DNA of 64,000 nucleotides from Eledone cirrhosa (lineage: Eukaryota), in the NCBI GenBank assembly GCA_964016885.1, contig OZ024742.1:353090001-353154000 (forward strand), given 5' to 3'. The translations under genes and the position numbers were made by a program. Shown piece after piece: positions 12,888 through 58,982 of this stretch (within the stretch, counting starts at the first letter, position 1; each line of letters starts with the position of its first letter). The notes beneath the pieces were generated by a model. That model made no database searches. It saw nothing but the letters and a program-made list of their open reading frames with translations, and had not been told where the DNA came from.

Positions 12888-13721
12888 TTAAATCAAGCCA
12901 GATTTGTATTTCGAGAACGTAGCCTTGAGTCTGTGATTGCAATAATGAGTCCTTTCCGTTCTGTTGTTGAGAAGAGTATAATTCAATTTTAGTATGTAAA
13001 ATCGCTCCATATTGCATAATCGGCAGTAAGGCTGGCCTGCACGATATGCGGAAGCACTAGAGAGTTTTGTCCATTTCAAAGTGTATTGCAGGTTACTTTC
13101 GTACAACTGCCAAATTTTATTGGCTAAGGTAGTTACGGAACGGTATTTGATGTTCTTCATCGAACTACGGTGTTGGTACCAACGAGATTTAAAAGTGGTA
13201 GAGGTACAGCCGATATAGTGCCATCTCCGGTTATCCGATTCAACGGTGCATTGATACACCATATTGGATTCCATGCATTTGTTATTCAGAGGGCAACGAT
13301 CAGGTAGGTTGCAGTTGCACTTATCAGCTCTTGTAGTATTATTATCTTGTACAGGTTGCGTTAGGTTTATATGTGTGTCTGCTGCAGGAGGGTTTACATT
13401 CAGTGGTTGAGAGTTTGAGGAAGTGTTAATGTAGTTTGGGGTGCTTCGTGTGGATGTGCTGACTAATCGTTTGGAGTTAAGTTTTTTAATAATTAGATCG
13501 AGATTGGGTGCTGTAGAATATGAAAGCTTAATGGACCTTAGATTTAGTATTTTAGCGTATCGATGTGCAGGAGGAAAATGTGTTTTGATTAAATTGAAGA
13601 AAAGTGAAGAAATTTTAGGAGATGTTGAGGCATTGTATATTGGATTGTACCAAAGGTAGCTACGATTCCGCTTTCTAGCTAGGTTGGGTTGTGTGCTTCT
13701 ATTTCGACTATTCGACCCCAT
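12888..13721 (-). CDS. PLE linker plus GIY-YIG endonuclease (277 aa, uninterrupted, no RT core)
   Basis: WYNPIY..HFP..KLSYSTAPNL; CNCNLPDRCPLNNKC; MVYQC..YIGCTSTTFKSR; LKW; CRLCNMER; LLNNRTE. Confidence 0.85.
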   Translation of the reverse strand: MGSNSRNRSTQPNLARKRNRSYLWYNPIYNASTSPKISSLFFNLIKTHFPPAHRYAKILNLRSIKLSYSTAPNLDLIIKKLNSKRLVSTSTRSTPNYINTSSNSQPLNVNPPAADTHINLTQPVQDNNTTRADKCNCNLPDRCPLNNKCMESNMVYQCTVESDNRRWHYIGCTSTTFKSRWYQHRSSMKNIKYRSVTTLANKIWQLYESNLQYTLKWTKLSSASAYRAGQPYCRLCNMERFYILKLNYTLLNNRTERTHYCNHRLKATFSKYKSGLI

Positions 13722-19401: not shown

Positions 19402-20072
<671 letters not shown>

Positions 20073-20111
20073 AATATATATATATATATGTATTTATAAA
20101 TATATATATAT

Positions 20112-20644
20112 ATAGTAATAATAATAAATTTGAAGACTAACATCCACAGAGGACTCGATAAGGATAAATATATATTAGATATATAAGAATCGTAGAGCAA
20201 ATATTTATTCAAATAACACATTAAAGTTTAAGCAAATAATCGCTGCTTTCACCCTTAACGAGATCTTCTGAAACTAAATAAAATCAAACTGTGAACGCAG
20301 AAATAAATTTTTCGAAAAACGTTGTAGAAATAGTCAGATGTTGTTGCTTCATGATGAATATAAGTCAATAGATTGATCTACGGTTCTTATATATCTTATA
20401 CATATTTATCTTTATCGAGCCCTCTTTAGATGTTATTCTTCAAATGTATTATTATTACTATTTGGCTCCCTCGGTTGAGCACTCTATTGACTTATATTCA
20501 TCATGCAGAACCAACCTATGAATATTTCTACAAATTTCTTTCGAAATATATACTTCTGCGTTCACAGTTTGATTTTTTCTTTAGTTTCAGAAGATCGCCG
20601 TAAGTGTGCAAACAGCGATTCTTTGCTTAAACTTTAATCTGTTA

Positions 20645-20652
<8 letters not shown>
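20112..20652. mobile_element. Fold-back of a ~285-nt internally deleted mini-derivative of PLE family B, with HHRs at 20225-20275 (-) and 20583-20633 (+, decayed)
   Basis: Both arms join the family B 5' UTR and first ~10 codons (ttcatcATG..atttctacaa) directly to the 3' pLTR (..ttt.gaaa..ttctgcgttcacag..HHR). Confidence 0.85.
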
Positions 20653-20682
<30 letters not shown>

Positions 20683-20687
<5 letters not shown>

Positions 20688-21039: not shown

Positions 21040-23789
21040 AAATTCATCCAGTTTGACATAGAGAGTTACTATGCTTCAATTACCTTACCGCTACTTACGG
21101 CTGCCTTCGACTTTGCCGAGACACTTGCGCCAATCTCACCGGCCAGGAAAGAAACATCATCCTCCACGCCAGGAAGACAGTCCTACTTTTCGATAAATCC
21201 AAATGGATAAAGACAGCTCCTGACTCACCCTTCGACGTCAGCATGGGCGCGACGGATTCGGCTGAGGTCACATATCTTATAGGATTGTTCCTACTAGTTA
21301 AACTCACAGATATGTTTCCTGCATTCGGCAGTGGATTGTACCGTCATGATGAGCTCCTTACCCTTAAAGAGTACAATCCCAGTAGTACAGACAGGGTCCG
21401 TAAACAATTAATCAGCTTCTTACGCGACTAGGGATTTAAAATAACCCTACAAACGTCTCTGACCCGAGTAAACTTCCTGGACGCTACACTTGACCTCGAT
21501 AATGATCTGTACTACTCATACAGGAAACGCAACGACAACCTGCACTACACCACCGCCGGTCAACCCATCCTAGGAACATCACCAATAACCTGGTTAAAAA
21601 CAACTCCCTCCGGATATCTCGTTTCTCCGCTAATGAGCAGATATTTGAGGAACATGCGCCTTATTGCAACCAGGCCCACAAGCGGAGTGGCTTCCGGGAG
21701 GAAATATCCCAGTGTCCAGCTTCCATTAGAGGAACCAGCAGGCGACACCGCCGCTAACGCAACGTAAAATGGTTCAATCCTCTCCACAACGCCGAGGTGA
21801 CAACTCCTTCGGGAAAATCTTCTTTAGGCTCATCGAAAAACACTTTCCACTACAACACCGCTACCACAACATAATCAACACAAATACCATCAAACTCTCC
21901 TACAGCACCACACCAAGCTTTGTACAAAACATCGTCTCCTCTAACAACAACAAAACTCAACCCCTATGGAAGAAATAACGTAAATAGCAGTGGAGAGCCG
22001 ACCAGGAGGTGCAACTGTGTCGACGGATCCATGTGCCCCCTTGACGACAGATGCAGAGATCGTAATGTGATCTACCAGTGCAACGTGAGGACGGACACCT
22101 CCAACAAAGCTTATATAGGATTAACCGCATGTGACTTCAAGACCCGGCTATACCAACACAGACAAACTTTCCGAAACTTTGCCCGGCGTCATGCCACCAC
22201 ACTTTCGGGCCACATCTGGGACGTCAAAGATAACAATATTACCTATGATCTCACTTGGAGCTTACCGACCTGAGCCAACTCTTACACGGGAGGACACCGT
22301 CCGTGCAATTTATGCTCTAAGGAAACTTTACAAATGCTGTTTTCGACGGACCAACTCCTAAACAAGAAAGACGAACTGGTAACTGCATGCAAAACACAGA
22401 TTGCGTAGGACTTACATCACCCTCACACCCCATAATGACCCGGTGCGGGGGGGGGGGGGGTAGACAAGGGCTGTAATACCCCACTTGCCGACTTTGTAAT
22501 GTGTAACCCCTGCTTGCAAAGGTAGACGTAAATCTTCTTTTATATCTTTTTATCGTTTCCTCTATATTTCCTTCTTTCCCCATCCCTTCCTAGTCCTTCC
22601 ACCCAGTCCTCCTTCTCTGTCGTCGTCCTTTTCACTTTCTCGCCCACCCGAGGCAGCCCCGCGGTCCTTTGTAGCCTCAGTACCCCCACCCCACCCCCTA
22701 TTCTATTATAGAATTGGCCGACTCCACTTTTTATAGCAGATGTGATAGACCCCACATACTTGCTTTCTTATCCGATGGCTGCTCCATTTCCGTGCTTTCT
22801 ACATTTCTTAGTGGTATCTCTGCTTTAATTACTCGTATATCAGTATTTATTTTTTTTTGGTGATTCTGAATTAATTTTCCGTATGAAATTGTTCATATAC
22901 TTCGAACGAGCATTTATGTAGTTTGCACTAGCATTTTTGTATCGTAGCGGCACCCTTAGAGATAGTATTAGTATTCATTTTCGGGATTCTGAATTATTAT
23001 TTCGTATTAGTTTATTTTTTACACTGGGTGGTTGCTGGTATTGTGCTTAGGGTAGAAACAATTATTTCGTATTAGTTTCGGGACTCTGAATTATTATTTC
23101 GTGGTAGTCTCTTTAGTATCCCCCCCCCCCACACACACACACTTGTTGACCTGTCACCGTAAGATATACTCGGTTGATTACTACTAACTCTTAAAATTGT
23201 CTCACTACAATTCCGTCCCACCTAGTAAACTTTTCTATAGTTTAGCAGTACCAGTATGAGACTTGATGACTGTGGTTAGGGAATAGTAACCAGATATTGT
23301 TTTTTAATATTTTTAACATTATTGGTATTCTTCTATATATATATACTCCATATTGATTTACTTATTGTCTCGACTGCCTCCCCCTCCCCCTCCCTAGTAT
23401 ACTTGCTTGACCTCCTGCCCTGATGTAGTTGGCACTATCAACGCACGACTGGGTTTCCTCCACTCCCTCTCCCTCTTTCTTCTACTGGCAGGTTCAGCTA
23501 CCCCTTCCTTCCACAAATTGCCATGATAGAATTATGTTTCTCGACAACAGACTTTTGACCAATCCTTGTGACAATCACTTTTACCATATATGGAATTAGC
23601 CCCTGAGAAGCTCGGCTATTCATATACCAGTATAAACATTTTCATTCAGTCCAGACCAGAATTAGCCGTCGAAACGGCTTGAGCTCAGCCGTCGGCGTCC
23701 TACTCGTTCCTATTACCCACTCTACTACCCTAAGTATTGAGTACTTTGGTGCGTTATGGTCCACCTGGTTCCTTACCACATTTCCTTCG

Positions 23790-23869: not shown

Positions 23870-24503
23870 ATTATAAATGTAAGCTATCACCGTATTTTGA
23901 CTAAAGAAATTAAAGAAATTATTTAGCCTGATTAAGAACCCTCGGAGAAATGAAAAAAGATGTGTATTGACGTACGTGGGAGTCTAACACACATCTTTGG
24001 TTATCCAGACTACTGTGCTACCAATTACACCAACACATTACCCGTCTTTTTCCATTCAAATTAGAAGCTATACACTTAGCGACTGTAATGCCAAGTAAGA
24101 ATATTTTCGAAACAGGGAGCGCGTTTGAAATTATTATAAATGCAAGCTATCGCTGTATTGTACGTCAATACTCGTCTTTTTCCATTGATCCGAGGGTCTT
24201 AAGCCCACTCTCAGGCTAAATAATTTCTTTAAATTCTTCAGTCAAAATATAGTCGCTAAGTTTATAGCTTCTAATTTGAATGGAAAAAGACGGGTGATGT
24301 GTTGGTGTAAATGGTAGCACTGTGGTCTGGATAACCAAAGATGTGGGTTCGTCTCTCATGTATGTCAATACTCATCTTTTTCCATTTCTCTGAGGGTTCT
24401 TAACACCACTATCAGGCTAAATAATTTATTTAGTCAAAATACGGCGATAGCTTACACTTAAAATCATTTCAAACCAGCTGGCTGTTTCGGAAATATTCTT
24501 ACT
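23870..24503. repeat. Complex non-coding fold-back/partial tandem element between (TA)n tracts
   Basis: ~23880-24085 is inverted at ~24250-24457, and 24094-24155 is inverted at ~24440-24503. Confidence 0.75.
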
Positions 24504-24752: not shown

Positions 24753-27700
24753 ACATGAATTGTCTTCAAATTCTTGATATGAGGGAGAAACTTAGCAAAT
24801 TCTCAGGCTGATAGCCCCTTCGAAGTCGGACATAGGAATCGTGAGAATCCCCTCTCTAGTTAGGAGATCGAAGATTAAATTGTGGTCAGGAACTAGTGAG
24901 GGAATTAACTGGTTTCAGAATACGCAGAATAAGAATAGCACTAGTTTATACAGTTCGATATCTCTAATTACAACTCTTCGATCTCTCCAACTCTTCTAGG
25001 TAGGGCCCTAAACTTTGTTAGCTTACACACCGACCTTACTTCTGAAGAAATTAAAATTATTCTCCTAGTTAGTAAAACCTTAATTGAGTTCAACGGTGAC
25101 TTGTGGACCAGGGAGGATGGCCGGCAATTTCAACATCACCATGGGATCCAGGGACTCGGCCTAGGTGACGGAACTGGTGGGCCTTTACTTCCTCGACTGT
25201 CTCGGAGTGGAAATGCACCACTTGGGAGGCGGCGCTTACCGTGACAACGTTTTGTTTACTGTGTCATTCCATAATAATAGGATGGTAGAGAGGGTGAGGA
25301 AAAAACTAAGCAAATCCTTGAAGAACATAGACCTAAGCATAGTATTTGAAGAGAACTTAAAGATAGTTAATTTTCTAGATGTTACACTTAACCTCAATTC
25401 AGCCCTATTCCAACCCTACCACATAACCAACGAGAATTTAAACTATGTCTACGCAAAATCGAACCACCCTAGAATAGTCACTAACGGTATTACAAAAAGC
25501 GTCTCTAGTGGAATTTCAGGACTATCTTCCAAATGAAGGTACCTTTAATAGGATCTGGAATTACTATAATAGCGCCCTGAAATGCGCGGGGCATAGCGAG
25601 GGAATCTCATTCAAACGTCCAGTAAATAATAGTAGCAACATTGCCTGCGATAGCTTAGACCAAAATAGTGACACTTTAGTTAACAGCAGGCGGGATACGA
25701 GGGAGGATCAATATAGACTTCATATTGTATTGCCTCCTAGTCCCAATGTTGATGGTACCAATGGAAACAACCACCCAGTTACTAACACGGGGTATGAGCA
25801 CCGTAATACAAGCGGAAACTCTATTTGTAAGCTTAATTGTAGAACTGATAAAACAACCTTTGAACGTAAAATGGAACGAGGTTCGAGTAAAGGGAATAGG
25901 AATAGGTGTAGCAGACGCATATTGGATATAACCCCGGCTATTGAGGGTAATCCCAATGGTTGCACGGGGGGTACACCGCCCCGGAGACTTGGGATGATTC
26001 CGCACACAATCGGGACACCCCAGGACCCCATCGACCCACAAGCAGTTTTCAGTTATAATAGACCAGTAGCTACTAAGGAGACAGGTTACTCTAATATATT
26101 TGGTAAGAACAAGAGGCATCGGACCAGAAAAATCCTGTGGTATAAGCCTCCTTTCTCCACTAGCCTGACCACTAGTATAGCTAAGCTTTTCTTTAGAGCC
26201 TTAGACAAATGCTTCCCTAGATCACACAGATACTATAAAATATTAAATAGGAATACCATCACGCTGTCCTACTCCACAACCAGTAACAGCTCAGAATATA
26301 GATAAGATGAATTATAGTAGACTTAGGACAGCCCAGGGGAGGACTATACATGGCAGAACTAATGGCAGCTCTATGGATGAACGGCCTCATACACGTGAGG
26401 CAAGTCGGGTCACCCCAACCCCTGGGAACTTACCCATAGAGCAGACAAGAACTGAGACCCGCCCTCAAAGGTACCGTGGTCCCTCTGGAACTAACCAGGT
26501 CAATAACAGAAAATGTAATTGCAGGAACACCACCGCTTGCCCCTTGGCTGGGAAATGCATCACCAAAAACATAGTCTACGACTGTAAGGTTTCTACTCTT
26601 GATAGAACCTCCAGGTATGTTAGGGCAACTGCAAATGAATTTAAGGATATATGGTATAATCACCGCTATACCTTTAATAGATTGGATAAAAAAATAACAC
26701 GGCACTTTCTGAATTAGTCTGGAAGCTTAAACAACAGAATATAGAGCACTCCTTATCCTGGTCCATAGTGTATTCAGTCCAGTCTTATAACGGAAGCACT
26801 GGCGTCTGTAATTTGTGCATAGCTGAAACCTTTAATATTATTAGAGGCGGCCCCCTATTAATTAATAGGAGAGCGGATTTTTTTAGCAACTGCCAACATA
26901 GTACCGCGAAAACCTTCCGCGGGATTTTTGGAAAGTAACCCACCACTAACTCCTCACTCTCTACTTTAGTCATTGAGTTCTCTCAATAAACAGACAATCA
27001 CACACTCAGGTAGTTAGATGGCTAAGATCGTTTGCGCACTTACAAACGGTACTCGGCCTGTTTCCACAGAATTCTCACAGCTGTGTGCACTTTAGAATAC
27101 CTAGTTCGTAAATAGTTAGAATGATTACACACTCACAATACCTAGTTAGTAAATGATTACACACTCAGGCAACACTGATTACGCGCATTTACATTTACCT
27201 CAAGATACCCTAAGCATTCAGTTCTCCCGGCTGGGATATAGCTAGACGTATTGCACACTCAGTTAAGACCGTTTACGCTTTCTATACATAACTCTACACA
27301 CAGTACACGTTTTCTTTAGACATTTAGTTCCCACAGTTACGACTGGTCACGTTCTTACCGATTGAACACTACACTAGGTTTTGATCATCTAACCATGGAG
27401 TGCTCACAGTTACGGATTGAACAAAAATACTTACACACCATTAATGGGCCTACACACATCCTCTAGGTTTTGCTATCCTTTGTTATTTTACTTTATTTTT
27501 GTGTTGGATAACACATCTCCACCACTCAAACACCTATCTTAAAAACCCAAGGGCCCATATGACGTGAAATCGCACTTCTGACACCTTAACCCAAATACCC
27601 AACCCTATACGGAACCCCTTGCTGGCCTACATAGCGGTTGCTTGCACGCACAGATTTGGGGACTCGGATTGTCAATGGGACAGCGGTACATAGTGAGTTC

Positions 27701-29339: not shown

Positions 29340-29660
29340 GAAAGTTTAAGCAAAGAATCGCTGCTTTCGACATTAACGGTATCTTCTTAAACTAAAAAAT
29401 TCAATCTGTGAACGCAGAATTAAATATTTCGAAAAACGTTGCAACCGAAGGAAAAAAGGAAGACGATATTTTGGTTCGTGAAGACGTTCCGTGGTAATGC
29501 ACGGAAAAAGGCGAGGATAATACGTCGTTATGTGGACCGAGAAGAACAATTTCATGCAAAGACGAGACCAAGATAATGGAATGAACTGAGTCGCTAGACT
29601 AATATTCTATTTAAAATACCCGAATGATTTCCAGCCCCGGAGATTAAGAATGAAATTAAT
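29340..29660 (-). mobile_element. Diverged family B pLTR fragment with decayed HHR (29343-29393)
   Basis: Aligns with 48170-48610. Confidence 0.8.
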
Positions 29661-29695
29661 AAAATTGTAAAGGAAAATGACAGTGGTTATTAATA

Positions 29696-30258: not shown

Positions 30259-30291
<33 letters not shown>

Positions 30292-30296
<5 letters not shown>

Positions 30297-30466
30297 ATAA
30301 TAATACATTTGAAGACTAAAATCCATAGAGGGCTCGTTAAGGATAAATATGTATAAAATATATAAGAACTGTAGAGCAAATATTTATTATAATAACAGAT
30401 TAAAGTTTAAGCAAATAATCGCTGCTTTCACCCTTAACGGGATCTTCAGAATCTGTTATTTTAATA
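30292..30466 (-). mobile_element. Family B pLTR end with short inverted tail
   Basis: Matches the reverse complement of 52090-52246. aatctgttattttaata (30450-30466) folds back on 30386-30401. Confidence 0.8.
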
Positions 30467-40952: not shown

Positions 40953-42614
40953 CTACCCCCCCCCCCCCGTGTCATTATGGGGTTTGAGGGCGAGGTAAGT
41001 CCTACGTAATTGGTGTTTACATGCAGTAACCAGTTCATCTTTCTTGTTTAGGAGTTGGTCCGTCGAAAACAGCATTTGTAAAGTTTCCTCCGAGCATAAC
41101 TTGCACGGGCGGCGTCCTACCGTGTAAGAGTTGGCTCTGGACAGTAATTTCCAAGTGAGATCATAGTTGATGTTGTTGTCCTTGAGGTCCCATATGTGGC
41201 CCGAAAGTGTAGTGGCGTGACGCCGGGCCGGGTTTCGGAATGTATGTCTGTGTTGGTATAGCCGGGTCTTGAAGTCACATGCGGTTATTCCTATATAACC
41301 AGTGTTGGAGGTGTCCGTGCTCACGTTGCACTGGTAGATCACATTACGGTCTCTGCACCTGTTGTCGAGGGGGAAACTGGATCTATCAGGACAGTTGCAC
41401 CTCATGGTCGGCTCTCCACTGCTATTTAGGTTGTTTCTTCCATAATGGTTGAGTTTTTTGTTGTTGGAGGAGACGATGTTTTGTGCGAAGTTAGGTGTAG
41501 TGCTGTAAGAGAGTTTGGTGTTATTTTTGTTAATTATGTTGTGGTAGCGGTGTTGTGGTGGGAAGTGTTTTTAAATGAGCCTGAAGAAAATGTTCCCGAT
41601 GGGAGTTGTCACCTCGGCGTTGTGGGGAGGATTGAACCATGTTACATTGCGTGAGCGGCGGTGTCGCCTGCTGGTTCCGCTAATGGGAGCTGGACAGTAG
41701 GATATTTCCTCCCGGAAGCCACTCCGCTTGAGGGCCTGGTTGTAGTAATGTGCATGTTCATCGAATATCTTCTCATTGGCTGACAAACGGGATATGCGGA
41801 GGGAGATGTTTTTGACCAGGTTGTTGGTGATGTTCCTAGGATGGTTAGATCGGCGTTGGATGTAGTGCAGGTTGTCATTGTGTTTCCTGTATGGGTAGTA
41901 CAAGTATTTATTGAGATCGAGGGTAACGTCCAGGAAATTAACTCGGGTCAGGGACGTTTGTAGGGTTATTTTAAATCCCCAGTCGCGGAAGAAGATGATT
42001 AATTGTTTACGGACCCGATCTGTACTACTGGGGTTGTAACCTTTAAAGGTAAGGAGCCCATCATCACAGTACAATCCACCACCGAAAGCAGGAAACATAT
42101 TGGTGAGTTTGGTTATAAGGAATAATCCTATAAGATCTGTGACCTCCGCCGAATCCGTAGCGCCCATGCTGACGTCGAAGGGTGAGTCGGGAGCTCTTTT
42201 TATCCATTTGGAGTTGTCAAAGAGTAAGACTGTCTTCCTGGCATGGAGGATGATTTTTCTTTCCTGGTCGGTGATGGGCACGAGTGCTTCGGCGAAGTCC
42301 AAGGCGGCAGTAAGTAGCGGTAATGTGATAGAAGCATAGTAGCTCTCTATGTCGAACTGGATAAATTTAGTGTCTCGTTTATCCTCCATATTGCTGAACC
42401 ATGAGATAACTTCCTGGGTGTTGATCCATAGGCAAAGTCGGGCGTGTTGCTTGACTTTTGGTATCACGCGGTCTAGGATATTTTTGCTGTTTCTCCCTAT
42501 CTCGGACTTCGTTGGGTTTATAAGCCTGATAGATGGTTTACGGTCGAAATCGGATTTGTGGTCCTTCAGTGTGAAGTAGGGTATCCGTGGGTCTAGGGGT
42601 TCGGTGCGGTCGGC
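40953..42614 (-). pseudogene. PLE RT plus GIY-YIG (frameshifted)
   Basis: FIQFDIESYY; SMGATDSAEV; GLYCDDGL; CNCPDRSSFPL; VIYQC..YIGIT. Confidence 0.9.
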
Positions 42615-44082
42615 GACCCCGAGGCTGTCACGCCACTACACTTTCGGGCCACATATGGGACCTCAAGGACAACAACATCAACTATGATCTCACTTGGAAA
42701 TTACTGTCCAGAGCCAACTCTTACACGGGAGGACGCCGTCCGTGTAATTTATGCTCGGAGGAAACTTTACAAATGTTGTTTTCGACGGACCAACTCCTAA
42801 ACAAGAAAGATGAACTGGTTACTGCATGTAAACACCAATTACGTAGGACTTACCTCGCCCTCAAACCCCATAATGACCCGGTGGGGGGGGGGGGTAGACT
42901 AGGGCTATAACACCCCACTTGCCTATTTTGTAAGGGGTAACCCCTGCTTTCCAATGGAGACGTAAGATCTTCTTTTACTTTTTTATCGCTTCCTCTATAT
43001 TTCCTCCATCCCCCCATCCCTCCCTAGCCCTTCTACCCCAGTTCCCTTTCTTTGTCGTCGTCTTTTTCTCGCCCACCCGAGGTAGCCCCTCGGTCCCTTG
43101 TAGCTTCAGCAGCCCCTCCCCTATTCTATGATAGATTTGGCTGACTCCGCTTTTTATAGCAGAGGTGTTAGACCTGGGATACTTGCCCCTTTCTCCGACC
43201 GCTGTGCCTTTTTTCTGTGCCTTCTATATTTCTTAGTGGCATATTTGCTTTAATTTCTCGTTTATCCAGTATTTCTTTCCTCTTTCTCTCCTTTTTTGGA
43301 GGGGGGGGGGGGGGGGGGGGGGGGTTCTGTATTAATTTTCCGTTCTTTACTTTTACTTCGTACGATCTTTCATGTAGCTTGCATAAGACTTTTTGTTTCG
43401 TGGCGGTACCCATAGAGTTAGCACGAGTATTTTTTTGCGGGACCCTGAATGATATTCTCGTACTAGTTTACTTTCCTGCTCTGGGTGATTGCTGGCCCTG
43501 AGATTGGGGTAGAAACCTTTATTATTTCGTGGTAGTATCTTTAGTATTTTGGCCCCCCTTTTGTTGACCCGTCACCGTACGATACACGCACTTATACCTC
43601 GTTTAAGGGTCCCTTTATTTCCGTCCCACCTAGTTTATTATTATTTATTTTTTACTCTTCATTATATATATATATTTTTTATTTTATTTTATTTATCCAT
43701 TCTTTTATTCACTTATTTATTTATTTATTTATGTATTTCTTTAGCCTAGCAATAGCGAGAGACTTAAGTCTTAGTAACCAGACTTTGCTTATCTTTTTTT
43801 TTTTTTCTTCTCTTTCAGTACGTTTTATAGTTTTACCCTTCATTGTTCTTACTTAACGTTTCGACTTCCTCCCCTTCCCCCTCCCTAGTATCTTCTTTGA
43901 CCTCACACCCAGCTGTATCCGGCACTACCAACGCATGAATGGGTCTACTCCACCCCTCTCCCTTTTTCTCCTACCGGCAGGTTCAGCTACCACTTCCCCT
44001 ACCAATTTGCCATCACAGATTTACTACTAACTTGTGATGTGACCAATCCTGGTGATTATCTCTTTGACCATATATGGAATTA

Positions 44083-45604: not shown

Positions 45605-46264
45605 CTACATTTTAAATTTAAATTTATATTTAAACGTTGAGTTCAATCTATGTCTGCAGCAACTGAATAAATTTGTCCGTAGATTAAGGGAATTTTTAGA
45701 TTTTAGTATAAAGAATATCTCCTCCGCACAGAGGTCACATGTCTCAGAGGATGAATTAAAAGGATTCCCCCTTGAGACTATATTCCAAGTCGTCGAATAT
45801 CTAACGTTATCATGCCTAAGTTGACAGAGTACGCCTGATAGTGCTGTTGAAGATTTTTTGGATGGATCTGTGAAAGAATTCTTGTGGTTGTTATAGCCAA
45901 GTTTAAATTCCGTCGATGTAGAACCAACGTAGTTAAAAGAATGAACGTCCGTTTTAACATTACAGTTGTATATTATATTTCTAACTAAGCAGTTGTTATT
46001 TAACGGACATTTAGATCTATCTCTACAGTTACAATTGTTAACTTGGATATTATTTATGCTATTATCGCTAGGTTTTAAGTTCCTGTTATTTATTCTATTA
46101 ATATTTTGCGCTAAATTTTTGGTGGATGAGTAAGTTAGTTTTACAGTATGTCTATTGAAAATTGAGTGATACCTATGTGTTCTAGGGAAGCGATTATCGA
46201 GAGCTTTAAAAAATAGTTTTGCAATGTGGGTTTTAATGTTTAGTGAGAAAGGGGGGCAAACCAT
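45605..46264 (-). pseudogene. PLE linker plus GIY-YIG endonuclease
   Basis: PPFSLNIKT..CNCRDRSKCPLNNNC..IIYNC..YVGSTSTEFK..TW..CDLCAEE..LNLRT. Confidence 0.88.
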
Positions 46265-47150
46265 ATTATATTCCTAGTTCTATTTCTTTTATGGCTTTTG
46301 GAATTATTGTAATGCATTCTATTATAGTTGTTAAGGTTGGGGCCGTAATTAAAATAGTTGTTATTTTGTTTAATTTGTTTATCATTATCTATGTACATAA
46401 TGTTATCACTATATCCTGCTCTAGCTAACGCTTCATTGTAATAATGGGCTTTTTCGTCGAAAATCTTTTTATTAGATGAGATTCTAGAGATACGTGATTG
46501 AACAGAGTTTACTATAGTATAATTATGATATAAACATATAGTATAATTATGATATAAACATGAATTTTTTAAAAACTAGACATAAGATCATTACTTTCAC
46601 ACATTATAGATACATGTCTCATTCATGAATACTGATATTTACATTATAATGCCTGTTTTATACGAACTAATATTTTCTACTGGATAAAACATAGCAGTTT
46701 TAAATTCTGCCTCGTTCACATTCTCTCTTTTTTATTTTCTCTTTTTTCTCTCTATATAACGGCTATTTTCTCTCTTAACTACATACATCTCCCTTTACAT
46801 TAATACTAGAGCTAAACAAATAAATAAATAAATAAATAAATAAATGTATCAACCGATACTCAACTCCTAGTTTCTCTATCTATCTCTATCTATCTCTTTC
46901 TTTTTTTCCTCTCTCTATATATATTTCTCTCTGTTTCTTTACATGTAGTTCTTCTCTTTATCTACCTTTCTATATATATCTCAATTTAGTCACATGCATT
47001 TCTTCTTTTTCTTCATTTCTCTTTCTTTCTTTCTTTCTGTCTTTCTTTTTACAACTGTCCACAATATTTTTTACTGCCAAATCAACCTCCCAAATGCAAG
47101 GTGATTGAAAGGTATGTCGTATCTATTTATTTATAAGACTGTTTATATTG

Positions 47151-48070: not shown

Positions 48071-48156
<86 letters not shown>

Positions 48157-48172
48157 TAAAATAACAGATTAA

Positions 48173-48223
48173 AGTTTAAGCAAAAAAACGCTGCTTTCAC
48201 CCTTAACGGGATCTTCTGAAACT
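48173..48223 (-). ncRNA. Hammerhead-like ribozyme, U4A core (family B, 3' pLTR)
   Basis: agttt-CAGAAGA-tCCC gttaa GGGt-GAAA-GCA..TGC-TT-aaact. Confidence 0.7.
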
Positions 48224-49148
48224 AACAAAATCAATCTGTAAACGCAGAACTGGATATTTCAAAAAACGTTGCAACCGGGGGAAGACAGGAAGACGATACT
48301 TTGGTTCATGGTGACGTTTGCTGGCAAAGAACGGGAAAAAACGAATAATACGTCATTAATAGGAGCGGTGAAAAACAATTACGTGCAAGGACAGAACCAC
48401 GTTTATGGGATAAAAGAGTTCGTAGACTAATGTTCTCTAAGTGGTGCATAGAGACGTTCTCTGGCAATGAACGAAAAAACGAAGATAATAAGTCATATGT
48501 GGAGCGTGGAGAACAATAGCGTGCAAAGACAAAACCACGTAAATGGTATAGCAGAAGTCGTAGACTAAAATTCTAACTAGGAGACCGAATGAATCTCCGC
48601 TACAGAGTTAAGAACAAAGTAAATAGATACAATACAGAAGTAATAGGAACAAATAAATACATACACGCAAACAGATACGTACATACACAAGCATACGCAA
48701 AACCTTACCATAGGTATACAAAACCACGCACATATAAATATGTGTATGTGTGTATGCTTGTGTACACATAAATAAATAATTATATAAACGTATTTAAGTA
48801 AATAAATACGTATATAACAAGCGCACACACATAGCTACAAATAAATACATGAAGGTTCGGAGACGTAAGTCAACTAAAACAAGAAGTACACATATACGCA
48901 CACCTACCATACGTACGAACCTGCATACTCACGCAGACCCAAAACTCCCATATACACATAACCAAGCCCTAAATACCAGAATATGTAAAAATGATACGCC
49001 AAAACAGTCAGATATACGTACGAGAAGGTATACATACCTTCACAAAACATACGGGTAATATATACTTACCTATGCAAAAAGTAAAGGAATAAACAAAACA
49101 TATACTTAGCTCCCACATCAAGACGTAAATATCCACGTATAGATCGTG

Positions 49149-51283
49149 CTATCCTTTAGGGTATAACGTAGGGCTGTAATACAGGAAAGTTTTGTGCAAT
49201 TTATGTTTACAAGCCGAAATTGCCTCAGATTTTTTTGTTTAAGATGTGGTCTGTGGCGTAGAGTATTTCCAGGGCCTCAGCGGCGCAGAGGTCACATGGT
49301 CTTTTATTTCCGTTATACGATCTAGCCCTAGCTAGGATCTCCCAGTGTAACTTATATTGGGTGTGGTTGTCATTTAGACTCCAGATATAAGCTGAAAGTG
49401 ACGTCATATTCCTTCTTAGAGGGTAACGAAAAGAATGGGTATGCATGTAATGACGCTGCTTGAAATTATTGGCGGTTAATCCTATGTAGGCCCTACGGGA
49501 CGTGGGTGTTACAACCATACATTTGTAGACAATGTTACTAGAGAGGCATTTCCCGGATAGGGGACAATCAGCCCGATTCCTACAATTACAGTTAGTACTA
49601 ACTACAGGGTTGCACGTGTTCCTACGGCTAGGTATTTTAGCTAAATTTGAAGCTGTGATGTTATGTGCACGGTTAGGAGTCTTTGAGTAAGAAATTTTAA
49701 TAGTGTTTCTATTAAAAATTTTACTATATGTATGTGTAGGTGGTAAAATGCTTCGTAATAAGGGAAAGAAAGATCTTAGCTAATGGTGTGGCCACCTCCA
49801 TATTATATGGTGGGTTAAACCAACAAATGCGACGGGATCTATTTCTTCTAGGTCTATTCTCGTACTCTGTATATGCTACCTTATCGACAAATCCACTTCG
49901 AGCAAGAGCTTCATTGTAATAAGTGGAATGGTCGTTGAAAATACGCTCGTTGGTGGAAAGACGGGAAAGCCTCAACGAAACGTTTTTTACCAGGTCCTTG
50001 GTTATGCTGGCAGGATGGTTGGAATGCTTACTTATGTAATTAAGCGTATTATTCGGCTTTCGATACGGGTAATGCAACCCATTCAATAAATTGAGGGAAA
50101 AGTCGAGGTAATTAACGACCGAGAGATTGGCCTCAACCTGTATAGAGAGATTGAAGCCTTTAAAGAAGGCTGTGAGTTCTTTTCTGAATCTGTCGCAAGC
50201 ACGAGGTCCGCACTTAGTCATGGTCAAAAGGCCATCGTCACGGTACAAACCACCGCCCGCGTTGGGGAATTCGTCCTTGATAGAGAAAAGAAGGAAAAGG
50301 CCAATAAGATCAGTAACCTCCGCAGAGTCACTGGCGCCCATACCCACGTCGAATGGGGTACTATTGGATTTTTTAATCCAAATAGAATCGTCGAAATTAA
50401 TCACCGACTTTCGGGCATTAAGGATGACATCAACTTCGAAATCCTTAACCACTGTGAGTGTTTTAGCGAAATTGATAGCTCTAAGGAGAAGTGGTAAAGT
50501 GATGGAGGAGTAGTAATTGTTGATGTCGAATTGGATAAAACGGCAATGTTCCTTGTTACATATGCCGTTGAACCAATCAATCACCGCGAAAGAGTTGTTC
50601 CACAGTGCGAGAGGGGCCACATTTCTAATTTCAGGTATAATTCTATCAAGAATCGTTTTACTAAGTCTACCTAAATCGGACTTCGTAGGGTTAATAAGCC
50701 GAATAGAGGGGTTGTTCGGAAAATTGGTCTTGTGGTCCTTCAGGGTAAAGTGGGGAGAGATAGGGTCCAAGGGTTCGGTCCGGTCCAGGATGTTGAGATC
50801 AGATGTGATTTTAAACCCAGCATCGTTGATTTCATTGATGACACACCGATTAGTTTTACGGTAATCCTTAGTTACAGCATTATGTAGTAGTTGATGGTAA
50901 GTACTGCGCTCCACTTGATATAGGTTGCCAGTTTTGTCTGAATGGACGTGCACGGCGTTAGCATCCTTAATAGAACGAATTCTATTCTTCAGGTCTTGAT
51001 GGAAGGAATTGCTCCTATTCCGATGAAATTTGATACTCCGAATGAGTTCCAAGACATCATTTTCGAAGGGTAGCAATGCTGGGTTCCACGGAGGGTTATT
51101 ATAGGTTTTAAATCCAAATTTGTCCTGTTTGTTGTCTGCTTTTCGCGGATTATGGAAATGAAAGGCACGCCAACGCAACCTTTTAATGAACGCGTCTGTT
51201 TTCTGTATCAGGAGTTTTAGGTATGTTTTCCTGCTTGGTACGGGTATGTTCTTTGTAGAAATATTCAGATGTTGTTTCTGCAT
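49149..51283 (-). CDS. PLE polyprotein, RT plus GIY-YIG (~710 aa after correcting two 1-nt insertions at ~49744 and ~49233)
   Basis: The 519-aa ORF has FIQFDINNYYSSI, GMGASDSAEV and GLYRDDGL. Hand translation continues in a shifted frame through CNCRNRADCPLSGKC, IVYKC..YIGLT, HW and CDLC. Confidence 0.9.
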
Positions 51284-52084
51284 GATGAATATAAGTCAGT
51301 AGAGTGCTCAACCGAAGGAGCCAAATAGTAATAATAATAAAATTGAAGACTAACATCCAGAGAGGGCTCGCTGCGTGAGTATGCAGGTTCGTACGTATGG
51401 TGGGTGTGCGTATATGTGTACTTCTTGTTTTAGTTGACTTACGTCTCCGAACCTTCATGTATTTATTTGTAGGTATGTGTGTGCGCTTTTTATATACGTA
51501 TTTATTTACTTATATACGTTTATATAATTATTTATTTATTTGTACACAAGCATACACACATACACATATTTATATGTGCATGGTTTTGTATACCTATGGT
51601 AAGGTTTTGCGTATGCTTGTGTATGTACGTATCTGTTTGCTTGTATGTATTTATTTGTTCCTATTACTTCTGTATTGTATCTATTTACTTTGTTCTTAAC
51701 TCTGTAGCGGAGATTCATTCGGTCTCCTAGTTAGAATTTTAGTCTACGACTTCTGCTATACAGTTTACGTGGTTTTGTCTTTGCACGCTATTGTTCTCCA
51801 CGATCCACATATGACTTATTATCTTCGTTTTTTTCGTTCATTGCCAGAGAACGTCTCTATGCACCAGTTAGAGAACATTAGTCTACGACCTCTTTTATAC
51901 CATAAACGTGGTTCTGTCCTTGCACGTAATTGTTTTTCACCGCTCCTATTAATGACGTATTATTCGTTTTTTCCCGTTCTTTGCCAGCGAACGTCACCAT
52001 GAACCAAAGTATCGTCTTCCTGTCTTCCTCCGGTTGCAACGTTTTTTGAAATATCCAGTTCTGCGTTTACAGATTGACTTTGTT

Positions 52085-52134
52085 AGTTTCAGAAGATCCT
52101 GTTAAGGGTGAAAGCAGCGATTCTTTGCTTAAAC
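52085..52134 (+). ncRNA. Hammerhead-like ribozyme, U4A core (family B, inverted arm)
   Basis: Same fold as 48173-48223. Confidence 0.7.
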
Positions 52135-52257
52135 ATTAATCTGTTATTTTAATAAATATTTGCTCTTCGGTTCTTATATATTTGATATATATTTTCCTTA
52201 TCGAGCCCTCTCTGGATTTTTGTCTTCAATTTTATTATTATTACTATATATATATAT

Positions 52258-52332: not shown

Positions 52333-53632
52333 ACCGTATAAATAGTGGTAGAACACTGGAAGGTAATATCCGTAGTGGCAGAGCACTCAGTCCATGGGAC
52401 GAGTTAGGTAGGAGTCCTTACACAACATTTAGTTAACCATACCGAGAACAATTGTTTCACCTTAACGGATCCTCAGCACGTAATTGACATGGTTATATGG
52501 AACAGGGAGGACAACCGTATGTACGTGCATGCGCAGAAATGGTCATTTCACCAAGGCATTTCAAAAGTGCGTGCGTGATGTGTAAGGGAGATAACTGCGA
52601 AAGTCCGAAAGTTTCTAGTTGAGAAGAAAATTAGGATGTCGTTGTAATTCAATAGCGAGCTTTCTAGTTATGGAAGAGGTGTTTCCTGACGTATGGACAA
52701 CGTGTGAATAATTCATTTTCTTGGATTTAGGCAATCGCTATTGCGTAATATCTTTAGAATATTTATTTATCCATCAATGCATAGTCCGCACGACGGATTG
52801 CCCCTTGCGTATGGCTTGGACTCAGTAATTGTTTTCCATTGAATGGAGTAGTCTATACTTGAGTCCTTGAGGGACCATACGGGGCTCACGTGTTTCGTGG
52901 ATGATCGTTTGTCAAGGTACCTAATGATCGACTGATGGTTCAGAAAACGTTCCTTAAATCGGCCCACTGCCATACCCCCGCAAGCTTTGACCTCCTGTGG
53001 TTGATTTCGTCGGTTGGAAGTGACCACAGCTTCATAAATTAGAGCGGATGAGTTGCATTGATGTTGAAGGGGATATGTTTCTGTCCTTCTGCAAGAGCAC
53101 CCTAGCGTTAGCTAACAGCAGCTTTCCGCAACTTATCACTTACTCTCCCACTAACAAAAACAGCAATAAGAAAAGAAAAAGTAACAATAGACAAACTATT
53201 TGGTTCTCTCCTCCCTTCTCACTCGACGTTAAAACAAATATAGGAAAAACATTTCTAGGCCTCTTAGATAGACACTTTCACAAATACAGCTCCATCTTTA
53301 ACAAACACAAAGTAAAACTAGGATACTCCTGCGCTAAGAATGTGAAGGGCCACATCACCAACCGACGAAAGAGCAACACTCAACCAGTGTGCTCTTGCCG
53401 AAAGCCTGAAATTTGTCACCTTCAACAGCAATGCAACACACCCACTGTAGTTTATGAAGCTGTGGTCACTTCCAACCGACCAAATCAACCACAGGAGGTC
53501 AAATCCTATGTCGGTATGGAGCATGGCCGATTTAGTGAACGCTTGCTGAACCATCAGTCAGCCTTTAGTTACCCGGACAAACGATCATACACGAAACTCG
53601 AGTCAAGGACTCAAGTATAGACTACTCCATTC
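52333..53632. mobile_element. PLE family I remnant: EN 3' end plus pLTR on minus (53060 to 52333) and inverted linker/EN piece on plus (53090-53632)
   Basis: WFSPPFSLDVKTNIGK..CSCRKPEICHLQQQC..VVYEA..YVGM on plus; ..QWKTI..CGLC on minus. Confidence 0.85.
52443..52480 (-). ncRNA. Minimal hammerhead ribozyme (family I)
   Basis: cgtg-CTGAGGA-tCC gttaa GGt-GAAA-CAATTG-TT-ctcg. Confidence 0.75.
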
Positions 53633-56759: not shown

Positions 56760-58982
56760 AGATCAAAAGATGGTTAAAAGAGTTCCATGTATTTTATTAC
56801 GCGCATTTTAAAAACAAATATCATTATGCGATGACATTTGCGTTTTCGTCATATAAAATAGGAAGATATGATATGAAGTTTATAAAACATTTGTGAATAG
56901 TGCAGTTTTAAATCAACATATGAAAAGTAGTTTTAGATTGATGTGTGATATTGGGAAAACAATTAGGGGAGGGGATGGAAAGAATGAAAAAGAAGAGGAG
57001 ATGAGAGTAAAGAATGGAGGTGGAGGAGTATAAAAAGGAAGGATGAGATAGGAGGAGAGATGGATGATAGAGAGAGAGATAGCTTTTATAACTGAGAAAA
57101 ATATATTGTTTTACAGAGAGGCGTTAAAAAAACCGTCGGAAGATAATATATGAATTAAAAGAATTTGAAAATGAACGAAGAGAAAAATTTAAGAATAATG
57201 TTAAATTAAGGTTTGTATATTGAAGTGTTTAATAATATGAAAAGAAATTGTTAATATGTATTAAGAATAATATTAAGTTAAGATTTGAATATTGAAGGGT
57301 TTAATAATATGTGCGATGGAAAGAAATTGTTGATATGTATTATTAAAAATAAAATTAGTAATGTAATTAAGGATATATTGTGAAAAGAAGTTGAGAGTTG
57401 ATGAATTATGAATTTAGAGGAATTAGTTAGTGTTTAAGTGTGTTTTTATGTATAGTAATATGTATGTGTAATATATGTAAATAGTTTGTTTACAAATGAG
57501 CGCAGAAAGCAAAGAAGGAGATAGTGTTTAAGGAGAAGACCTTAACATCAAAATATGTATGTTTATGAAGTATTTCCAGTGGTAATAACACAATGTAATA
57601 AAAGAGATTAGTTAGGATTTAATTTTGTTTTTATGTGTTGGGATGTGTAATATGTAGAAGTTAGACGAGCATGAAAGGTAGAAAAAAATAATGAATTGAG
57701 GATGTATAATCTAACGTCAAAAAATGTTTATGATTGCGAGGGATTTTTCAAGGTGATACTATGAAGTATTTAAAAGGGTAATAGTAAGTGTTATGGCCAG
57801 TGATAGGATGGAAAAAGGAAGTGTGGATATATTGTGGTGAGTAATAATGAGAATTGAGAAGTATCTAGGAAGAAAAGGTACAGATTAGAGGTTAGAAATT
57901 AAAAGAAAAAAGGGAAAAGGAAGAAAGGGACGTGATAATTAGGAATGATATAGAATGGGTAACTAGTATTATATAATGTATAATAAATAACATTGAAATA
58001 ATGTAGAAAGATGGGTATATTTTTAAAGAAATATTTATATATATATATATGCCTTTGAGAAAAAGGATTTTAAATTGGTAAATTATTAGATATTAGCTGT
58101 ATACTTTATGGAATGTTCTGTGGAATTTATGCAAGCAGAGAGAAAACAAGTCAGTGCGTCAATTTATTATAGAATCTAAATTAGATATAATGGTAAATTT
58201 CTCACATAAACAGAGATTACATGTTTTGGATAGAGAGGCATTCAAGTATGGAGAGGCAGAACAAACCTTCCTCCAAGAGATGTTATAGTTAATATTTTTG
58301 TCTTTCAAGGACCATATGAGTTCTGAGAGTGCCGTGTTGGTTCTTTTAAGTTGGTATTTAAAAGACGAATAATGATTATAAAGACGAGCTTTAAAGTAGG
58401 TGGAAGTGGAGCCAAAATAGGTAAAGGAATTGGTGTCAGTTATAACTTTAGATTCATAGATTAAGTTTTTTTCAAGACAATGGTTGTTGAGAGGACATTT
58501 ATTTTTAACAGGGCAATTACAATTGCGATTAGAGAAATTAACAGAGTTATTAACAAGTGACCTAGTGTTATCTATAGGAGGAATTGGATTGGAGAAGTTA
58601 TTTACGATAGGAATAATAGTTTCTTGATTTAGATTGGTATTAAGAACATTTAACGAAGTTGCGTTTGACGTCATGAGTACTATTTCTATTATTATGATAT
58701 TCAGTGTTGGAAGGAAGAGATTTAGTATTTAGTATTTTATTGTTGTGTTTAGAGATAATGTTGGAGATGTTGGAGGGGGTCGAATAGGAACATGTTATAG
58801 TGTGTTTGTTAAATATTTTACTATAGATATGTGAGGGAGGGAAGCATTTATTTAAGGCACTAAAGAAAAATTTAGGAATATTTTTATTAATAGAAATGGA
58901 GAAAGGAGTATTATACCAGATTATGAAATGCGCATAATAAAATACATGGAACTCTTTTAACCATATTTTGATCTTATATATT
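56753..58982 (-). mobile_element. PLE family L (Hydra-type), old 5'-truncated copy with short inverted end; decayed HHR at 56793-56857
   Basis: IWYNTPFS..CNCPVKNKCPLNNHC..LIYES..YFGSTSTYFKAR..SW..CNLC. 56753-56808 is inverted at 58925-58982. Motif tttat-ATGACGA-(long stem II)-AAAA-tgcgcg-TA-ataaa. Confidence 0.88.

Follow-up and report, generated by a model that had tools for sequence, protein, structure and literature searches.

Structure of the insertion at 20112-20650

At 20112-20650 of the window (the whole 64,000-nucleotide stretch analysed here), two inverted arms lie between (TA)n runs. Each arm joins both ends of a Penelope-like element (PLE) of family B, which has a representative at 48152-52247. 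The features of the locus are listed below.

19810-20111, no strand: (TA)n target, left flank (sequence)
20112-20375, minus strand: left arm, with the last 23 nt of the 5′ UTR, ORF nt 1-31, the junction, pre-hammerhead 3′ UTR, hammerhead-like motif and tail; 88-89% identical to the parent (BLAST and pairwise alignment)
20225-20275, minus strand: hammerhead-like motif, type I, core CAGAAGA (U4A), U.U at 10.1-11.1, one stem II substitution (inspection)
20322-20324, minus strand: CAA microhomology where ORF nt 31 meets position -53 (relative to the core) in the left arm (alignment)
20369-20381, no strand: head-to-head inversion point, where the arm starts overlap; 5-nt microhomology of the parent sequences, two changes since
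20373-20650, plus strand: right arm, with tail region, complete 5′ UTR, ORF nt 1-31/32, the junction, pre-hammerhead 3′ UTR and a broken hammerhead; 84-92% identical to the parent (alignment)
20651-20684, no strand: (TA)n target, right flank (sequence)

In each arm, parent segment 51370-51253 (5′ UTR and ORF nt 1-31/32) was joined to 52037 onward, which corresponds to 48264 onward at the other end of the parent. The left-arm join is 53 nt 5′ of the hammerhead core and ~94 nt 5′ of the predicted cleavage site, which falls between 20230 and 20229 on the minus strand. The right arm has its ATG at 20503-20505, its junction near 20531-20538 and its hammerhead core at 20588-20594; its hammerhead is broken by a change of GAAA to GCAA at 20608-20611 and by disruption of stem II. 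The left arm terminated at a distal fixed end, ~117 nt beyond the cleavage site, and the right arm at a proximal fixed end, ~22 nt beyond the predicted cleavage site. An earlier note on this DNA had described both arms as fusions of the family B 5′ UTR and first ~10 codons to the segment preceding the hammerhead, with arms that begin and end at different points of one unit. Alignment bore out both statements: the fusion lies at ORF nt 31-32, the left arm has no equivalent of 20462-20479, and the two arms stop at different fixed ends. The CAA microhomology that the note reported was present in the left arm (20324-20322); the right-arm junction was 32/-46 with a 4-nt insert. The two junctions, which the note took to be the same, were thus within a few bases of each other and not letter-identical; they go back either to a single junction that has since acquired ~3 changes or to two closely spaced jumps. 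The unit, given as ~285 nt, measured ~280-282 nt, and a natural tandem whose junction is 3 nt longer has a period of 283.

Over their common part the arms were 86.6% identical, compared with 97.3% for the parent's own arms. Because of this low identity, the insertion is considered old. The right arm contains 18 nt of 5′ UTR (20462-20479) missing from the left arm, and a variant common to both arms was found in 3 of 194 units. The arms are therefore copies of one template lineage and not fold-backs of each other, and a local inverted DNA duplication is ruled out by the same two observations. The earlier note had also held that the minus arm reads through the hammerhead and that the template was circular or multimeric. 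The left arm does cross the motif into the tail; however, this is not specific to the deleted unit, since the inverted end of the parent (52037-52247) likewise reads from the hammerhead into the 5′ UTR. A template more than one unit long or circular would fit, but circularity was overstated: both arms would be explained by a linear RNA that carries the ~100-nt tail region at each end and whose 3′ hammerhead had not been cut, so that a circle is allowed and not required.

The parent element

The earlier note placed the parent correctly. Its features, together with the two strands of a helix discussed below, are as follows.

48152-52247, minus strand: family B representative (not the literal donor), Hydra-type PLE (BLAST, motifs)
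51371-52247: inverted 5′-truncated second arm of the parent, 97.3% identical to 48149-48936
51283-49724, minus strand: reverse-transcriptase frame with RWR, DKT and YRDDG (motifs by eye)
49779-49225, minus strand: GIY-YIG-type endonuclease frame with CxCX5C linker (motifs by eye)
51221-51283, minus strand: ORF-start side (5′ strand) of a predicted long-range helix, nt 1-63 of the ORF (fold prediction)
48242-48299, minus strand: pre-hammerhead side (3′ strand) of the same predicted helix, -81 to -24 relative to the core at 48218 (fold prediction)

The reverse-transcriptase and endonuclease frames of this copy are out of frame with each other. The endonuclease is C-terminal, with CNCRNRADC, YIG and CxxC recognized by eye; CxH is not reached, the frame ending at 49225. 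A Pfam search of the parent frames gave no match. By these motifs and by its (TA)n targeting, the parent matches the Hydra clade as characterized in the accessible text of PMC8557442. A Naiad identity was ruled out by the C-terminal position of the endonuclease.

The parent 3′ UTR contains two ~135-nt tandem repeats, 77% identical, at 48302-48574. Other family B material in the window includes a small remnant between (TA)n runs at 30291-30460, with tail and hammerhead fragment and an inversion within the motif, and an older, ~79% identical copy of the 3′ UTR with a decayed hammerhead-like motif at 29341-29661. The window is dense in PLE families, with reverse-transcriptase or endonuclease fragments detected by tblastn at 31-569, 12960-13601, 24802-26872, 45686-46515, 52755-53605 and 58162-58873.

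The hammerhead-like motif

The family B motif is laid out as type I: it has helices I-III, with helix I extended, and a U.U at the base of stem II. The variant core CAGAAGAT was found in 180 of 194 units in a motif search allowing 2 mismatches. U4A is a family-wide core variant, present also in the parent, and departs from the canonical hammerhead. U10.1-U11.1 is a known natural hammerhead variant according to the accessible part of PMC3088659; U4A is absent from the account of variants in the open-access text of that paper and may be already described. The motif is called hammerhead-like here, and its cleavage is a prediction. A search of Rfam at gathering score over the 64-kb window gave only a weak tRNA match, and a search over the parent 3′ end with E up to 10 gave nothing relevant. 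The tRNA-like match, at 24296-24367 (33.9 bits), is possibly the head of a SINE.

Recurrence of the same junction in the genome

A query with the junction gave 40 scored matches, of which 23 span a deletion, but the junctions differed among them. The 31/-53 junction itself was found at ~7 loci on several contigs: six with at most 2 mismatches, plus L002. These copies fall on two subfamily backgrounds, both of which also exist as undeleted copies. A tree in which five 31/-53 copies form one clade was rejected (p-AU 0.007; 53 rows thinned from 76, a short alignment with unsettled bootstrap). The two backgrounds and the rejected clade indicate that the 31/-53 junction was born at least twice and founded no large family. 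No tandem array carrying it was present among the loci seen. A single hotspot at ORF nt 29-46 had appeared in junction-biased searches and was overturned by an unbiased search from the ORF start.

The insertion is, as the earlier note proposed, an internal-deletion derivative of the neighbouring PLE family that was inserted by retrotransposition; the alignments and the junction at other loci agree on this. Neither of the two findings that the note had named as fatal to its reading, a junction unique to this locus and arms explained by local inverted duplication, was obtained. The genome search it proposed showed a recurring junction, at ~7 loci, but no amplified family, and its idea of a single birth that founded an amplified retrozyme family does not survive the two backgrounds and the rejected clade. 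Both ends of an identified autonomous parent are joined by internal deletion, and the (TA)n flanks and the two fixed ends shared with the parent mark insertion by the parent's machinery. Each unit is short, non-coding and low in GC, with 10 codons remaining. There is no tandem hammerhead repeat at 20112-20650, where two inverted arms each contain at most one unit, and the junction census and the tree revealed no persistent replicating lineage from this mini. The locus is SIDE-like in behaviour and has the anatomy of a retrozyme monomer with a putative ribozyme, yet it falls outside the retrozymes in tandem structure and amplification. This copy is a dead end: it has decayed and founded no family. 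What the note took for the possible birth of a retrozyme fits better with a nursery from which units of retrozyme size come, and what the note missed is that the deletion recurs family-wide, with dozens of distinct junctions along a predicted 5′-3′ helix.

Family-wide census of internally deleted units

A census was performed with exact ORF-start and hammerhead anchors. Of 939 exact family B ORF-start anchors, 179 had a hammerhead anchor within 300 nt, and 100 of these 179 matches were examined. The 100 matches listed represent 85 loci with at least 57 junctions, 48 of them at a single locus. Removal of 5 junctions with inserts longer than 10 nt left 52 simple junctions, 45 of which give units of ~282-409 nt after subtraction of a 3-nt offset calibrated on natural monomers. 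The natural monomers are 283-406 nt long with GC 0.31-0.35, and no unusual stability was predicted for the corresponding mini-circles (z -0.4 to -1.2 in 4 natural monomers, from six loci of which two yielded none). Deletions with a remainder above 300 nt are covered by a sample from C1 only. Its first 50 anchors comprised one chance match, 28 near full-length copies and 17 distinct large deletions, and 12 of these 17 have donors at or before nt 125 of about 2900.

Only one junction, 71/-99, was frequent (22 loci). It is a passenger in a larger repeat and was counted once. Its interpretation as an amplified retrozyme was ruled out, as the 22 loci share upstream flanks at about 91-98%. The carrier repeat (L060, L106, L126, L100 and 18 more loci; L139-L142) has kilobases of common, internally repetitive upstream sequence, and each copy contains 1.4 to 3.4 mini units. 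Splicing as the source of the deletions was ruled out by junctions that vary base by base.

Some junctions have three parts: in L095 and L111 the ORF start is followed by a 35-96 nt mid-element piece and then by the 3′ UTR, and the three-part junction is common to all units or both arms. Tandem minis with other junctions were found at L049 (two units), L095 (three) and L097 (ten), and L118 is also tandem. The L097 array (G000:C2:273374800-273384700) has ten units of 406-409 nt and a short inverted arm, and is interrupted by an unrelated insertion of ~3.4 kb. Its units share variants in a higher-order pattern, which does not support a pure rolling-circle product and suggests later growth at the DNA level.

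Breakpoints follow a predicted long-range helix

When the whole 3219-nt unit was folded as full-length RNA, the structure of lowest energy contained a predicted long-range helix of 43 bp that pairs ORF nt 1-63 with -24 to -81. In a fold of two pieces the register continues to about 119/-168, the part beyond nt 63 being absent from the whole-unit fold. At -56.6 kcal/mol, the predicted duplex is more stable than shuffled sequences (two sets of 300; z -3.5 and -4.1), though the ORF start has a still stronger partner in one ORF window (-68.9). A duplex between the ORF start and the pre-hammerhead segment was predicted in all 27 full-length copies, at -21 to -35 kcal/mol. No two-sided covariation was detected in these 27 copies, in which the ORF strand is nearly invariant.

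The breakpoints lie along a diagonal. Donor and acceptor positions increase together over the 52 simple junctions (Spearman rho 0.66), and rho was 0.65 after near-identical junctions were merged (n = 37), within an overall range of 0.65-0.77. Thirty-nine of the 52 junctions lie at most 10 nt from the helix register, compared with 8% under a uniform null, and none of 2000 permutations came as close. The next skipped base was unpaired to the other strand at 39 of 49 acceptors (50% expected) and 31 of 49 donors (41% expected). Microhomology of at least 3 nt occurred in 12 of 47 insert-free junctions, compared with 5.4% by chance, a contrast somewhat inflated by scoring against the best of 27 references. 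The junction of 20112-20650 is located at the first internal loop of the helix. From this pattern we infer that reverse transcriptase may jump across the helix. A search of the open-access literature found no report of helix-guided deletion in PLEs.

Comparison with family A

A second Hydra-type PLE family in the window, family A (41040-42623, minus strand; 21040-22369, plus strand), served as a control. Its unit is 3722 nt long and is tandem in L159; inspection of its hammerhead-like motif showed the U3-A8 variant in the core and a long stem II. No ORF-start helix was predicted for family A (z -0.3). None of 56 family A anchors had an intact hammerhead within 300 nt, whereas 179 of 939 did in family B (Fisher p 2e-5). 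In the 40 of 56 loci fetched, the acceptors of family A are concentrated between +32 and +47, within the hammerhead, and donors range from 79 to over 3000; donors fell at ORF nt 79-181 in 8 of the 40, with a duplex z of about -0.5. Family A thus often jumps from the 3′ end towards the ORF start without a predicted helix, and jumping near the ends therefore looks general. End-to-end proximity may be the general condition, with the helix only steering the jumps; in family B, the helix appears to decide the landing site and the survival of the hammerhead.

Two-armed loci and timing of the deletion

In two-armed loci inspected by eye, the two arms stop at different tail sites, one proximal and one distal, as those of the parent do; the two fixed 3′ ends in (TA)n are thus common to minis and parent, and fit two primers on one RNA. 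Thirteen two-armed loci were compared: the arms have matching lengths over the junction and are 86.6-100% identical. Seven two-armed loci were called with an identical junction in both arms. Since most two-armed loci have the same junction in either arm, independent jumps are disfavoured. Two loci are very young, with arms 100% identical. The junction of L104 (G000:C2:400523726-400524072) occurs nowhere else in the assembly, and that of L044 (G000:C5:19683261-19683479) was found only at its own locus among 23 matches. One junction in both arms of young loci indicates that the template was a deleted RNA or that the jump was common to both enzymes. A source copy may be missing from the one-haplotype assembly, the second enzyme may have followed the first across a splinted junction, or the RNA may have been cut and rejoined.

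Other insertions are mixed. A parent-type unit lies upstream of the deleted unit in L033 and L129, L057 has a full-length second arm, and L116 carries two different junctions in tandem. Together with the three-part junctions, these mixed insertions point to jumps during cDNA synthesis.

Origin of the deletions

We favour, at a probability of about 0.6, the reading that 20112-20650 holds an internally deleted Hydra-type element that inserted long ago, with two arms, and is one of dozens of independent minis, which likely arose when reverse transcriptase jumped a predicted helix between the ORF start and the 3′ UTR. In such a process, the enzyme would prime from both sides of a (TA)n cut, at the two fixed tail sites. 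Copying would go back through the hammerhead and open the helix; reverse transcriptase would stall at an internal loop, re-engage the opposite strand via 0-6 nt of microhomology and skip about 3 kb, and the two cDNAs would then join head to head via microhomology. With the landing point upstream of the hammerhead, 5′ UTR, whole hammerhead and tail are all retained in a 280-410 nt non-coding unit with the anatomy of a retrozyme monomer.

Deletions might instead arise in the DNA of source copies, by replication slippage or by microhomology-mediated repair across inverted complementarity in single-stranded DNA, and then be transcribed and retrotransposed. The excess of microhomology fits repair equally well, a junction common to both arms needs a pre-deleted template, and non-homologous recombination is called the likelier source of R2 SIDEs in the accessible text of PMC3414825. 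However, L033, L057, L116 and L129 mix deleted units with parent-type or differently deleted ones, 48 of the 57 junctions are at a single locus among the matches listed, and the L104 junction exists only in its own two identical arms, so that the assembly holds no source copy; we regard an origin in DNA as unlikely. Slightly less likely again is a shortcut in the RNA, whereby both strands of the helix are cleaved in their unpaired loops and the ends, lying side by side, are ligated into a small, possibly circular hammerhead RNA that both enzymes copy. The preference of breakpoints for unpaired positions would agree with it, as would paired arms that share a junction for which the genome offers no further copy (L104, and L044 among 23 matches), and RtcB circularizes retrozyme monomers in vitro, as described in the available portion of PMC7229834. 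Against it, the microhomology excess, short inserts and three-part junctions are typical of polymerase jumps, and units are mixed inside one insertion.

A protein or a circle could also bring the RNA ends together, the helix being incidental. The family A jumps to ORF nt 79-181 would suit such proximity, but proximity or a size limit predicts a null or negative correlation between donor and acceptor, and the observed correlation is positive (0.65-0.77) and follows the register, which makes this explanation improbable. We give least credence, and very little, to a single deletion having given rise to a ~285-nt retrozyme that then multiplied as a separate family via circular RNA. The ~7 loci on several contigs speak for it, and three copies on the old background, an unresolved group in the tree, could share an origin; but the two subfamily backgrounds, the rejection of one clade (p-AU 0.007), the lack of a 31/-53 tandem array among the loci seen and the broken right-arm hammerhead argue otherwise.

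Beyond the preferred reading of jumping reverse transcriptase, a bolder and tentative idea, which we hold to be possible but doubtful, is that the panhandle from coding region to 3′ UTR is a retrozyme factory. A small domain of 5′ UTR, hammerhead and tail, likely circular, would be detached from the full-length RNA in the course of a single insertion or shortly before it, with no source copy in the genome, and both reverse transcriptases would circle it. L104, L044 and the tandem loci L049, L095 and L097 would then be snapshots of birth, and U4A would be a new active natural variant.

Relation to known systems

Polymerases skip stems at short microhomologies in structure-guided reverse-transcriptase deletions of retroviral vectors and in defective RNAs of RNA viruses. 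Those cases are laboratory or viral; in contrast, family B is a genomic record of a non-viral retrotransposon whose products retain a ribozyme-like motif.

Retrozyme RNAs are circular, and PLEs have been named as their likely movers (Cervera and de la Pena 2020, PMC7229834, in its accessible text). For PLEs themselves, cleavage, circularization and more-than-unit reverse transcription have been proposed (PMC4209133, available sections). A 2026 preprint links retrozymes to pLTRs and has them born by local tandem amplification of terminal sequence (Li, Clavereau and Pollet; bioRxiv 10.64898/2026.07.22.740005, in the part accessible). Family B units differ from that route, as far as the accessible part describes it, in being made repeatedly by internal deletion that includes the ORF start. 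They resemble metazoan non-LTR retrozymes, as portrayed in the accessible parts of PMC7229834 and bioRxiv 10.64898/2026.07.22.740005, in unit size, low GC and absence of coding capacity, in carrying a type I hammerhead-like motif and in kinship with PLE termini, and some sister minis are tandem as retrozymes are (L049, L095, L097, L118). Unlike retrozymes, 20112-20650 has two inverted arms, one broken motif and a U4A core, and is known here from its sequence.

In R2 SIDEs, recombination is the favoured origin and a template jump one possible origin (Eickbush and Eickbush 2012, PMC3414825, accessible text). Like these SIDEs, as that text presents them, the minis retain ribozyme and 3′ end after internal deletion and are mobilized by the parent's machinery. 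R2 SIDEs are described there as rare, with four reported origins, long-lived lineages, HDV-like ribozymes and a fixed rDNA site. Family B, unlike them, has at least 57 junctions in one PLE family, mostly at single loci and aligned with a predicted 5′-3′ helix. Likeness to Hydra-clade PLEs, as given in the available sections of Craig et al. 2021 (PMC8557442), extends to the C-terminal endonuclease, RW(R/K), DKT, the CxCX5C linker and (TA)n targets, and to an inverted 5′-truncated arm with the tail at one end. Unlike them, family B has a non-canonical core, and those sections mention no long-range helix or deletion spectrum; they note non-autonomous PLEs only for Chlamys.

The insertion at 20112-20650 is itself decayed, and the value of these findings lies in the family-wide pattern, which gives a concrete, testable route from a PLE to retrozyme-sized units. 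Of families A and B, only the helix-bearing B yields whole-hammerhead units in the retrozyme size range. The breakpoints can be used as an indirect structural map of PLE RNA, and the minis record priming, jumping and the joining of two arms by the PLE reverse transcriptase, an enzyme that has received little study. PLEs are the presumed source of animal retrozymes; the literature, in the portions accessible to us, offers co-occurrence and phylogeny for this and no mechanism caught in the act, and family B provides dozens of independent births with a testable rule, breakpoints that track a predicted 5′-3′ helix.
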